Shown piece after piece: positions 50,754-50,884 of a stretch of DNA of 64,000 nt. Made by a program: the position numbers and the translations under genes. Where the stretch lies: the sequence record MK482689.1; one strand, written 5' to 3'. This DNA comes from Escherichia phage vB_EcoM_LMP33. The notes under the pieces are model-generated. The model did not search any database and was not told the origin of the DNA. It saw only the letters and a list, made by a program, of their open reading frames with translations. The first letter of the stretch is position 1. Every line of letters starts with the position of its first letter.

Positions 50754-50884
50754 CAGAAGACCGTTTACAGCAAAACTTAAACAATCTATTTCTCGGTAAA
50801 GAAAAGGCGAAGGTTCGATTCCTTCACTCGGCAGATGTCGAGTTGGTGTAATGGTAGCACTTAAGATGATAAACAACGGTCTGG
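50754..50884 (+). ncRNA. structured element c2 with embedded permuted tRNA-like module; Y-RNA-like candidate
   Basis: Closing stem AGACCGT/ACGGTCT enclosing, in order, T-arm GAAGG-TTCGATT-CCTTC, acceptor 3' strand ACTCGGC, loop AGAT, acceptor 5' strand GTCGAGT, D-arm GTGT-AATGGTA-GCAC; no anticodon arm. Confidence 0.45.

Follow-up and report, generated by a model that had tools for sequence, protein, structure and literature searches.

We propose that the element at 50751-50887 on the + strand of the window (the whole 64-kb stretch of DNA analysed here) encodes a non-coding RNA of the bacterial Y-RNA (YrlA) type, a reading to which we give a probability of roughly 0.7. The element, which we call e4, lies in the tRNA array of a Felixounavirus (FelixO1-type phage), and its RNA would be built from two modules. 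The predicted frame consists of an outer helix, a 3x1 internal loop, a helix of the form AGACC.../...GGUCU and the single-stranded motif UUACAGCAA. Inside it would sit a tRNA-like domain, in which a T arm, a tetraloop-closed acceptor-like helix and a D arm are arranged around a junction. The frame is common to e4 and three neighbouring paralogs, e1-e3, and is the predicted binding site of a Ro60-like protein encoded upstream at 48290-49705.

Anatomy and fold of e4

The first-pass annotation had placed a circularly permuted tRNA-like module at 50754-50884, within an element that it called c2. Those bounds enclose the correct core of e4, but we have widened the span to 50751-50887 because an extra outer helix of 4 bp (TTAC/GTAA) lies at its ends. 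The parts of e4 are as follows.

50751-50887, + strand: the whole long frame RNA with the tRNA-like domain inside, 137 nt
50751-50754 (UUAC) paired with 50884-50887 (GUAA), + strand: outer helix, invariant within e4
AGA (up to 50757) opposite G 50883, + strand: 3x1 internal loop
50758-50765 (AGACCGUU) paired with 50875-50882 (AACGGUCU), + strand: frame helix, 100% paired, with two pairs turned into G-U by one-sided changes
50766-50773, + strand: single-stranded motif UACAGCAA, which reads UUACAGCAA when the U before it is included
50776-50780 (CUUAA) paired with 50861-50865 (UUAAG), + strand: A/U helix where a tRNA has its anticodon stem, seen in the MFE fold
50785-50807, + strand: hairpin where a long variable arm would be (UCU-A-UUUCU / AGAAA-AGG), 89% paired
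50809-50825, + strand: T arm (GAAGG-UUCGAUU-CCUUC), with T-loop U54 U55 C56 and A58 and the G53-C61 pair
50826-50843, + strand: closed acceptor-like helix of 7 bp, ACUCGGC (50826-50832), AGAU (50833-50836), GUCGAGU (50837-50843)
50844-50845, + strand: linker UG (U8-G9), followed by the D arm
50846-50860, + strand: D arm (GUGU-AAUGGUA-GCAC), with A14, G18 G19 and A21
50875-50887, + strand: the 3' strands, AACGGUCU of the frame helix, G of the internal loop and GUAA of the outer helix

In the unconstrained MFE fold of 50754-50884 (-32.3 kcal/mol), all the helices originally described form simultaneously, including the T arm, D arm and closed acceptor helix whose coexistence had been postulated; the z-score of this fold relative to shuffles is modest, at -2.06. 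The T arm, acceptor 3' strand, AGAT loop, acceptor 5' strand and D arm were all found where they had originally been placed, within 50809-50860, and the same interval holds all of the tRNA core nucleotides considered (U8, A14, G18G19, the T-loop UUCRA and G53-C61). The 15-48 Levitt pair is not kept in the module, where A15 faces C, U or A. The closing stem AGACCGT/ACGGTCT is likewise present, but it does not stand in for an anticodon stem as had been thought: that position is taken by the weak A/U helix, in which 73% of cells are paired across genera, and the closing stem lies one internal loop further outward. The T arm, the tetraloop-closed acceptor-like helix and the D arm are set around the junction, which allows a tRNA elbow to be made by the T and D loops.

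A strict descriptor of the module (T arm whose loop reads TTCRANN; perfect hairpin of 5-9 bp; spacer of 1-3 nt; D arm whose loop reads A..GG) has a single match in the window, both strands scanned, at 50809-50860. The claim that the module cannot be a canonical linear tRNA holds. As it stands, ARAGORN and Rfam give no tRNA for it, there is no linear cloverleaf with an anticodon loop, and the Rfam tRNA model matches the T arm only (model positions 43-63, 14.9 bits); at gathering thresholds, Rfam finds nothing but tRNAs in the window. When the module is circularly re-permuted, ARAGORN calls it a tRNA, but only once an anticodon loop has been added artificially and the variable loop set to 5 nt; if the native variable region of 29 nt is kept, there is no call. 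A permuted tmRNA was also considered and rejected, as ARAGORN reports no tmRNA and the window scans gave no tmRNA_permuted match. Permuted tRNA genes and two-piece tmRNAs do share with e4 the order T arm, acceptor 3' strand, intervening loop, acceptor 5' strand and D arm. Their mature forms, however, carry an anticodon loop or a tag reading frame, whereas both are missing from e4, in which a loop of 4 nt closes the acceptor helix.

Paralogs, conservation and the Ro60-like gene

The following features surround e4 in the window.

48290-49705, + strand: Ro60-like protein gene, 471 aa, with Pfam DUF2828 and DUF7788 and PHROG 850 'RNA-binding protein'
49724-49844, + strand: two sigma-70-like promoters (TTGACA-17-TAATAT and TTGACA-18-TAAAGT) upstream of the first tRNA, from a consensus scan only
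50040-50117, + strand: e1, short frame RNA between tRNA-Glu and tRNA-Met, UGAC-AGA-AGACCAA-UUACAGCAA ... UUGGUCU-G-GUCA
50206-50276, + strand: e2, short frame RNA between tRNA-Met and tRNA-Asn, UUAC-AGA-AGACCGU-UUACAGCAA ... ACGGUCU-G-GUAA
50662-50743, + strand: e3, short frame RNA, GAGC-AGA-AGACCAA-AUACAGCAA ... UUGGUCU-G-GCUC

The frame common to e1-e4 reads 5' AG-stem-UUACAGCAA ... stem-CUG 3'. The tRNA-like domain belongs to e4 only, and its three paralogs measure 71-82 nt with the outer helix included. Four of the seven window matches to the pattern CAGAAGACC..UACAGCAA...GGUCUGG are e1-e4 (0.69 expected), and the motif UUACAGCAA is common to e1-e4, to RNAs of distant phages and to the Dictyostelium Class I RNAs. 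Between the array promoters and the promoter that comes next (51283), a consensus scan of the + strand found no terminator-like site. Promoter-like sites do not exceed their shuffle expectation, so the array promoters are putative. Some database records label the region as a pseudo-tRNA or an odd 131-nt tRNA-Thr, and frame RNAs are mis-annotated in hundreds of genomes, being absent, called pseudo-tRNA or 131-nt tRNA-Thr, or covered by small opposite-strand ORFs.

Elements e1-e4 are syntenic across Felixouna-, Susp- and Mooglevirus. In nine e4 sequences from three genera, 94.7% of the pair cells are paired, as compared with 44-51% for slid partners. The closed acceptor helix is 100% paired in this set, with three of its seven pairs changed on both sides, and its lineage versions (ACUCGGC-AGAU-GUCGAGU in the window, ACACGU-UACG-GCGUGU, and ACCCUUC-GCCAAACA-GAAGGGU) are all fully paired. 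The T and D arms are invariant in Ounavirinae and therefore contribute no covariation there. The outer helix covaries between paralogs (UGAC/GUCA in e1, GAGC/GCUC in e3, UUGC/GCAA in e2 of SUSP2), and the sequence of the variable-arm hairpin is not kept in the Moogle/HP1 lineage.

The Ro60-like gene ends 1,046 nt before the start of e4, on the same strand. Its product is predicted to fold like Ro60, a likeness recognisable by fold comparison only. For the AlphaFold model (pLDDT 87), the 11 best PDB fold matches are all Ro60/TROVE structures (E 6e-9 to 7e-7), and Foldseek aligns 9kop, 9l5y, 2i91, 1yvp and 2nvo over the full length (TM 0.48-0.66), covering the HEAT-repeat ring and the C-terminal vWA domain. 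A MIDAS-type DxSxS motif, DVSGSM, is invariant in 35 homologs. At the sequence level no Ro60 was detected: Pfam TROVE is absent, and neither phmmer nor a 35-sequence profile finds a PDB Ro60 chain. The protein is 97.5% identical to that of phage JohannRWettstein/Bas63 (ortholog gp130), which has been described as Ro60-like and as countering the Ppl defence; the Bas63 authors surmise that Y RNAs are concealed between the tRNAs. This DUF2828-type family counts homologs in 709 phage records and at least 2,550 clusters. It is encoded by giant viruses of protists too, and published reports place it in plants; the literature searched for DUF2828, PF11443 and IPR024553 gave plant and tardigrade mentions only. 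Mycobacteriophage homologs are annotated 'Ro-like RNA binding protein'.

The association of frame, module and gene extends to 75 distant viral contigs that encode a DUF2828 Ro-like protein. Strict frames on the gene strand number 78 and occur in 48 of these contigs; 69 lie less than 1 kb from the gene and 45 within 300 nt. They comprise short forms of ~60 nt and long forms with the same T/acceptor/D module. All ten modules in the distant contigs lie inside strict frames, none of the ten overlaps an ARAGORN tRNA, and five match Rfam YrlA at 24.7-39.2 bits, with significant E-values that fall below the gathering score. Relative to the Ro-like gene, 27 module matches are on the same strand versus one that is not, and four false positives of the module descriptor are junctions between ordinary tRNAs (contigs L002, L009, L011 and L016). 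The frame and module descriptors demand pairing, and pairing inside the matches is therefore not independent evidence; strand, position and the separate covariance-model matches are what counts as such. Raw CAGCAA strand counts were set aside as weak, since most loci are coded on the + strand and the counts are inflated by this.

The arrangement of frames varies among these phages. In Mycobacterium phage Lolly9, a short, a long and a short frame follow directly 3' of the Ro-like gene, the long one matching the YrlA core at 37.7 bits (E 7.5e-7), and the nearest annotated tRNA is ~2.7 kb upstream. Contig L076 has four frames in tandem 5' of its gene with no tRNA abutting; Listeria phage LMTA-34 has three, the first of which is separated by a CDS from a tRNA-Met ~285 nt upstream. 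Frames stand immediately 5' of the Ro-like gene in Listeria and Campylobacter phages. The exact-motif descriptor gave no convincing frame in Staphylococcus phage SEP9 or Bacillus phage Nate, which may use a variant motif. The ends of distant frames read AG/UG ... CUG/CAG with covariation of the flanking pair (131 AG..CUG versus 74 UG..CAG in a relaxed set whose background is ~70-80 matches).

The YrlA-type reading and its alternatives

An acceptor helix closed by a loop, with the open ends on the anticodon side, is the feature for which e4 was originally likened to YrlA, and this architecture is supported by the fold, the pair counts and the re-permuted ARAGORN call. YrlA RNAs (RF02553; Chen et al. 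2014, PMC4201824) are like e4 in having a closing helix, a V region, a T arm, a closed acceptor-like stem-loop, 2 nt and a D arm, together with conserved tRNA core nucleotides and, in some members, an acceptor helix of 7 bp. Relatives of e4 score 25-39 bits when aligned with the tRNA-like core of YrlA. Further hallmarks of YrlA are binding by Ro60, modification by TruB/DusA and use as a substrate by RNase P or the CCA enzyme. YrlA genes are found less than 4 kb from a Ro60 gene on the same strand (PMC4201824), and e4 follows this rule with respect to a gene whose product is not Pfam TROVE. Comparison with the YrlA covariance model gave a divided answer. The modules of distant relatives match below the gathering score, but the window copy has no match to RF02553 YrlA or Y_RNA in 50600-51040 or 50745-50895, even at E <= 10, and the gathering threshold of 69 bits is reached neither by the window nor by related modules.

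Several features also set e4 apart from YrlA. Its presumed partner belongs to the DUF2828/DUF7788 family rather than to Pfam TROVE, and it carries a 29-nt variable-arm hairpin, lies inside a tRNA array and has three paralogs that lack a tRNA-like domain. In place of the GNCGAAN0-1G strand motif through which Ro60 binds, e4 has an AG...CUG-closed stem and single-stranded UUACAGCAA; the 5' strand, from which the Ro60-binding motif is absent, reads UUACAGAAGACCGUUUACAGCAA. With the canonical motif absent, the predicted binding of the Ro-like protein is drawn from genomic linkage alone. These comparisons support the view that e4 has the architecture of a YrlA-like Y RNA and a different putative protein-binding frame, and that it stands outside the curated family as defined. 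A related case is Thermus phage phiLo (PMC12135203), where small stem-bulge-stem RNAs, Yrl1 and Yrl2, lie beside the gene for a phage Ro60-fold protein whose structures (9kop, 9l5y) are the best structural matches of the 48290-49705 product. The phiLo RNAs differ in having a CGAA motif, in lying upstream of the gene and in having no reported tRNA-like domain, and their protein is a recognisable Ro60 homolog.

We propose that e1-e4 are transcribed within the tRNA-array precursor and would be freed as RNase P and 3' processing enzymes excise the flanking tRNAs; e4 is thus probably cut out of a tRNA precursor, and it may additionally be cleaved by RNase P in its acceptor loop. Known Ro/Y ribonucleoproteins include the 'RYPER' complexes of Ro60, Y RNA and PNPase; in such particles a nuclease, PNPase for example, is linked to Ro through the Y RNA. 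In parallel with these, the variable interior of the frame RNAs, which in e4 is the tRNA mimic, may serve as an effector or recruitment module. The resulting ribonucleoprotein could act in phage RNA quality control or in counter-defence, and the latter role would fit the anti-Ppl phenotype reported for the orthologous protein of Bas63.

It is unlikely, in our estimation, that the frame RNAs are real but are bound through UUACAGCAA by another phage or host RNA-binding protein, the Ro-like gene being a mere neighbour. The missing canonical Ro-binding motif points that way, as does the fact that the sole direct binder reported for the look-alike Dictyostelium RNAs is an RRM protein. The linkage to DUF2828 nevertheless recurs in phages of Proteobacteria, Actinobacteria, Firmicutes and Campylobacterota whose other neighbours differ, and a chance neighbour would not hold the close position (<=300 nt) seen for 45 of the 78 strict frames. 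We regard as quite unlikely the idea that e1-e4 act in cis as punctuation marks in the tRNA precursor, hairpins in the spacers that direct RNase E, III or P or stabilise the transcript rather than free ribonucleoproteins, with the tRNA-like part of e4 offering an additional RNase P/Z entry site. All four do lie in spacers of the tRNA array; where one adjoins a tRNA, 3-10 nt separate the two, and the consensus scan showed no promoter or terminator of their own. Against this, frames adjoin the protein gene without an abutting tRNA in L076, Lolly9 and LMTA-34, and a spacer hairpin needs no invariant single-stranded motif of 8-9 nt.

Two further possibilities concern the module itself. That it is a circularly permuted or split tRNA gene, whose acceptor loop is opened by RNase P and 3' trimming or CCA addition to yield a chargeable two-piece molecule, seems to us very improbable. 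The 7-bp acceptor stem is the feature that makes M. smegmatis YrlA a substrate of RNase P and CCA addition, and the acceptor loop begins with N-CCA in the Moogle/HP1 lineage, L066 and L082 (GCCAAACA, GCCAAUU, ACCAACUAU and CCCAAU). However, e4 has a frame on the side where an anticodon loop should be, a tetraloop without CCA closes the helix in the window copy and most others, and ARAGORN, which is able to detect permuted tmRNA, reports nothing. Least credible of all is debris, namely two decayed tRNA fragments or a recombination scar without function at the transcript level, a prospect that the first-pass annotation had raised against itself. Such debris might be expected in arrays that evolve through duplication and loss; the descriptor's four false positives are ordinary tRNA junctions, and some records call the region pseudo-tRNA or 131-nt tRNA-Thr. 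It is largely refuted by the complementarity of the acceptor strands through three different sequences and by the recurrence of the module in unrelated phages, always inside the frame, on the gene strand and outside tRNA arrays.

A possible relation to Dictyostelium Class I RNAs

The frame of the proposed Y RNAs resembles the Class I RNAs of social amoebae (RF01414; Kjellin et al. 2021, PMC7919456). Those RNAs begin with (A)AG at the 5' end and finish with CUG(U) at the 3' end, the G of the former being paired to the C of the latter, and have a terminal stem of ~6 bp conserved in structure and not in sequence, single-stranded CCUUACAGCAA and a variable interior, in ~60 nt total. The ends of e1-e4 (..AG-A-AG-ACCNN ... 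NNGGU-CUG-G) fit this closing rule. Nine of the 11 positions of CCUUACAGCAA match in e2 and e4 (GUUUACAGCAA); the universal positions 3, 6, 9, 10 and 11 match in e1, e2 and e4, and e3 has A at position 3. The exact 11-mer occurs in distant phage copies, for example in L027, L020 and L025. RF01414 is the best Rfam match of e2 (21.1 bits, E 0.098) and e1 (17.8), with e4 at 13.0, scores in the range of 13-21 bits that do not reach the gathering threshold of 41.5. A model built from 42 amoeba RNAs only (R1) finds 18 phage RNAs, all 18 on the gene strand, the best at 30.5 bits (E 9.5e-4) and e2 at 14.1 bits. Conversely, a profile of 29 phage RNAs matches 37 of the 42 amoeba RNAs versus 7% of shuffles. 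One Class I RNA, asu_can_20, has a T arm followed by a closed hairpin.

Class I RNAs differ from the window copies in being encoded by nuclear genes, in tens of copies, with a DUSE promoter ~60 nt upstream and mature lengths of 42-65 nt, and they are reported in Dictyostelia only; the window copies have an extra outer helix and lie within a polycistronic tRNA transcript, in an operon of a bacterial virus. Many of the outgroup candidates of Kjellin et al. (e.g. A. thaliana ath_can_1, CM 40) resemble intron 3' ends (UUUCUUACAG) and are probably background. [quoted passage not shown] Peptide motifs (SDMEF, DVSGSM, VSGFS, GRWDD, TENGA and others) gave no relevant match in the ~3% of the Kjellin et al. 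proteomes covered.

We tentatively suggest, as a possibility that we hold to be less likely than not, that the phage frame RNAs and the Class I RNAs of Dictyostelia form one family, its hallmark AG-stem-(C)CUUACAGCAA...stem-CUG being a docking site for DUF2828-type Ro60-like proteins. If so, the Class I RNAs, which are abundant, developmentally important and thought to be unique to social amoebae, would be Y-RNA analogues, with the tRNA-like domain as a cargo module that a member may or may not carry. A second, unrecognised branch of Ro ribonucleoproteins would then be made up of the DUF2828 proteins from phages, giant viruses and eukaryotes, and DDB_G0281243 would be the prime candidate partner of the Class I RNAs.

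For the phages themselves, these data turn a published guess, that Y RNAs are to be found among the tRNAs, into four concrete candidate RNAs for which a consensus is defined. These belong to a coliphage amenable to genetics, and for its Ro-like protein an anti-defence phenotype is already on record. The DUF2828-type proteins, a very large phage family, thereby gain a candidate class of dedicated RNA partners and a new putative recognition frame, which would extend the Ro/Y-RNA paradigm to proteins outside TROVE. For the Dictyostelium Class I RNAs, whose mechanism has been a question since 2004, the data further provide a lead that can be tested by way of a protein family also present in giant viruses of protists.

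Four paralogous RNAs and their shared frame

The tRNA array of this phage comprises 25 genes, all on the + strand (49871-54946; ARAGORN). The pattern AGAAGACCNNTTACAG has seven matches in the window (0.69 expected), of which four lie within the array, each paired with a downstream ...GGTCTGG. These define four paralogous RNAs, e1-e4:

50040-50117, + strand, e1, AGAAGACCNNTTACAG and GGTCTGG pattern
50206-50276, + strand, e2, AGAAGACCNNTTACAG and GGTCTGG pattern
50662-50743, + strand, e3, AGAAGACCNNTTACAG and GGTCTGG pattern
50751-50887, + strand, e4, AGAAGACCNNTTACAG and GGTCTGG pattern

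The paralogs share a terminal frame surrounding a variable interior. Its outermost layer is a 4-bp helix that varies and covaries among them (UGAC/GUCA, UUAC/GUAA, GAGC/GCUC, UUGC/GCAA), followed by a 3x1 internal loop (AGA opposite G), an invariant AGACC/GGUCU helix with 2-3 variable pairs and, innermost, the single-stranded motif UACAGCAA. All four are syntenic in all three genera (Felixounavirus, Suspvirus and Mooglevirus). The stretch 50600-51040 is matched by 251 phage records, nearly all from Felixounavirus and relatives, and is 100% identical in Enterobacteria phage KhF1. Ro/Y-RNA particles and YrlA, the bacterial Y RNA with a tRNA-like domain, are already known, phage examples included. 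No Rfam family captures RNAs of the e1-e4 type, and in the literature searched we found neither an account of them nor a description of the UUACAGCAA frame as partner of a DUF2828 protein.

Existing annotations over e3/e4 are artefacts: a 131-nt 'tRNA-Thr GGT', 'tRNA-OTHER/pseudo' and small opposite-strand hypothetical CDSs (REP5, L001 1465-1595; Bas63, L088 2549-2823, with bas63_0137 and bas63_0138; several other records). Elsewhere in the array, 51605-51683 is a weak tRNA match (Rfam, 31.7 bits) missed by ARAGORN, at the position where related records annotate tRNA-Arg(TCT). The DUF7217 ORF (53974-54771, 265 aa, GTG start) as listed begins within tRNA-Phe (53945-54020); its true start probably lies further downstream, as the Pfam match begins only at residue 29. 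Directly 3' of e4, and sharing its last bases, is a long hairpin (50884-51031; 22-nt arms 95% complementary, MFE -48.3 kcal/mol) containing a miniature frame-like hairpin, CAGAC-CUUAAGCAA-GUCUG-G, at 50987-51006. The tRNA-Asp/e3 spacer (50604-50661) has by eye two more apparent small hairpins, one G+C-rich (~50611-50633) and one UUAAAGG...CCUUUAA (~50634-50659), over which Rfam gives no match.

The tRNA-like module of e4

Among e1-e4, only e4, in the 430-nt tRNA-Asp/tRNA-Lys gap, carries a tRNA-like insert. The first-pass annotation had described it as a circularly permuted tRNA-like module, and each of the parts it named is present:

50758-50765 with 50875-50882, + strand, closing stem, read in sequence
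50809-50825, + strand, T arm, read in sequence
50826-50843, + strand, closed acceptor-like helix ACTCGGC / AGAT / GTCGAGT, read in sequence
50844-50845, + strand, TG, read in sequence
50846-50860, + strand, D arm, read in sequence

In an unconstrained fold of 50754-50884 (-32.3 kcal/mol), which has a modest z-score of -2.06 against shuffles, all of these helices form simultaneously. The core nucleotides of the tRNA elbow are all present (U8, A14, G18G19, UUCGA T loop, G53-C61), and the module is the sole match in the 64-kb window to a strict 'T arm, perfect hairpin, D arm' descriptor. As had been claimed, the sequence as it stands is no canonical linear tRNA (ARAGORN, Rfam). When re-permuted to place the acceptor 5' strand first, and given an artificial anticodon loop and a variable loop of 5 nt, it yields a normal ARAGORN cloverleaf; if the variable region keeps its native 29 nt, ARAGORN makes no tRNA call.

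In an alignment of nine e4 copies from the three genera, 94.7% of pair cells are paired, versus 44-51% once the pairing partners are slid. Across three sequence versions (ACUCGGC-AGAU-GUCGAGU, ACACGU-UACG-GCGUGU and ACCCUUC-GCCAAACA-GAAGGGU), the closed acceptor helix keeps 100% pairing, with three of seven pairs changed on both sides. The T and D arms are uninformative in this Ounavirinae alignment because they are invariant. The closing stem had been placed where an anticodon stem would be; the stem itself stands, and the position holds a short, weak A/U helix (73% paired). The loop that closes the acceptor helix starts, in some lineages, with a discriminator base and CCA (GCCAAACA, GCCAAUU, ACCAACUAU, CCCAAU; L002/L007 of Moogle and HP1, L066 5563-5618, L082 5843-5901 and 8527-8582), which looks as if it were an encoded tRNA 3' end.

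Association with a Ro60-fold protein gene

The ORF at 48290-49705 lies on the same strand as e4 and ends 1,046 nt upstream of it. By sequence its product shows only DUF2828 and DUF7788, and neither the protein alone nor its profile matches a solved structure. The 11 best PDB matches of its AlphaFold model (pLDDT 87) are all Ro60/TROVE, including Thermus phage phiLo Ro60, Xenopus Ro and Deinococcus Rsr. PHROGs labels the family 'RNA-binding protein', and in mycobacteriophages homologs carry the annotation 'Ro-like RNA binding protein'. Giant viruses of protists also encode proteins of this fold (Pithovirus, Marseillevirus, CroV, a choanoflagellate mimivirid and Bodo saltans virus). The 97.5% identical gp130 of phage Bas63 is published as a Ro60-like protein that counteracts the Ppl defence system; its authors raised, as speculation only, that Y RNAs might be among the downstream 'tRNAs'. 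In Bas63, gp130 and e1-e3 are in place. Its e4 copy was not recovered, the search re-matching e2, and the tRNA-Asp/tRNA-Lys gap, site of e3/e4, holds two small opposite-strand ORFs in the record.

Among 80 viral contigs encoding this protein family, 75 are distant (39-48% protein identity). Excluding tRNA junctions, the T/closed-acceptor/D descriptor finds ten modules in these 75; over all loci it gives 27 matches on the gene strand and one on the other. All ten distant modules are enclosed by the same frame, here (A/U)G-stem-UU-(U/A)CAGCAA ... stem-C(U/A)G. A strict frame descriptor finds 78 gene-strand frames in 48 of the 75 distant loci; 69 lie no more than 1 kb from the gene, and 45 fall in the nearest 300 nt, where an even spread over the flanks would put ~7.5%. 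Short frames measure ~56-62 nt; long ones, which include a T arm, measure 100-250 nt. Directly after the Ro-like gene of Mycobacterium phage Lolly9 stand three frames, in the order short, long, short; in Listeria phage LMTA-34 and Campylobacter phage F360, frames lie just upstream of the gene. In this phage, then, e4 represents an RNA class that is widespread and linked to the Ro-like protein family. What the data show is a conserved RNA of two modules, a Ro60-fold protein gene adjoining it, and a linkage between them that recurs in very different phages.

The YrlA-type architecture suggested for e4 is supported. The Rfam YrlA model matches five of the ten modules (24.7-39.2 bits, E down to 4e-5), all under its 69-bit threshold, and matches the Lolly9 long frame over the core only (model positions 23-89; 37.7 bits, E 7.5e-7). 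The tRNA-like core of e4 is YrlA-like; its outer, presumably protein-binding part is not.

In LMTA-34 (L090 4575-6455), the Ro-like gene and three upstream frames adjoin a metal-dependent phosphohydrolase and an RtcB-type 'tRNA splicing ligase', an RNA-repair neighbourhood resembling the bacterial rsr-yrlBA-rtcBA operon. Sizeable non-coding gaps adjoin the DUF2828 gene in Bacillus phage Nate (L093 1853-2462) and Staphylococcus phage SEP9 (L091 2742-3071). The exact-motif frame was found in neither locus, bar one SEP9 match that we take as spurious given its position inside a CDS; a variant RNA may be present in these phages.

The covariation and the recurrence outside tRNA arrays contradict an account of e4 as debris from tRNA decay, and a permuted functional tRNA would have to do without an anticodon loop. 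If e1-e4 were purely cis-acting spacers, frames beside the gene with no adjoining tRNA would be left unexplained. It is possible that the frame RNAs bind a different protein partner.

Class I RNAs and a proposed mechanism

A separate and more speculative extension concerns the Class I RNAs of dictyostelid amoebae. This family is the best permissive-Rfam match of e2 (21.1 bits, E 0.098) and e1 (17.8 bits), and also matches e4 (13 bits). As published, Class I RNAs (~60 nt) start with a conserved AAG and have a terminal stem of ~6 bp conserved in structure only, in which the 5' G is paired to the C of a 3' CUGU; beside the stem lies the single-stranded 11-mer CCUUACAGCAA, followed by a variable interior. 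This definition is that of the phage frame. A covariance model built from 42 amoeba sequences alone, searched against both strands of 720 kb of phage loci, gives 18 matches at E <= 1, all on the Ro-like gene strand and nearly all within ~700 nt of that gene; the best (30.5 bits, E 9.5e-4) contains the exact 11-mer. Conversely, a profile made from the sequences of 29 short phage frames matches 37 of the 42 amoeba RNAs; the controls give 58 matches in 840 shuffles and 4 in 42 reversed sequences. We found no link between the two RNA types in the literature searched. Two Class I RNAs listed in the supplement of Kjellin et al. 2021, asu_can_20 and ppa_can_99, have GGUUCGA T-arm-like hairpins; in A. 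subglobosum asu_can_20, a closed 9-bp hairpin directly follows the T arm. The A. thaliana outgroup candidate ath_can_1 scores 40 bits with the Class I model of Kjellin et al. 2021, and DUF2828 genes are reported in plants. Pull-down with Class I RNA recovered the uncharacterised protein DDB_G0281243.

For the phage RNAs, we propose that e1-e4 are transcribed within the tRNA precursor from promoter-like sites at 49724 and 49815, after which a scan of the array region finds no + strand terminator-like site before 51283. The region's best promoter match (51283-51311, TTGACA-17-TATAGT, 11/12 positions) lies inside the array, after tRNA-Ile, so the array is probably at least two transcription units. 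Release would be by tRNA-processing enzymes, since e1-e4 lie only 3-10 nt from the end of any tRNA they abut. The Ro-like protein would then bind the frame, leaving the interior as the working end, and the tRNA mimic of e4 could recruit tRNA-binding enzymes. RNase P could open the e4 interior, as is reported for M. smegmatis YrlA, which also has a 7-bp acceptor helix; this is plausible because the acceptor loop begins N-CCA in some lineages, and such loops suggest RNase P or 3'-end processing into a two-piece RNA. By analogy with the Ro-Y RNA-PNPase complex, and in view of the Bas63 phenotype, the resulting RNP would serve RNA surveillance or counter-defence.
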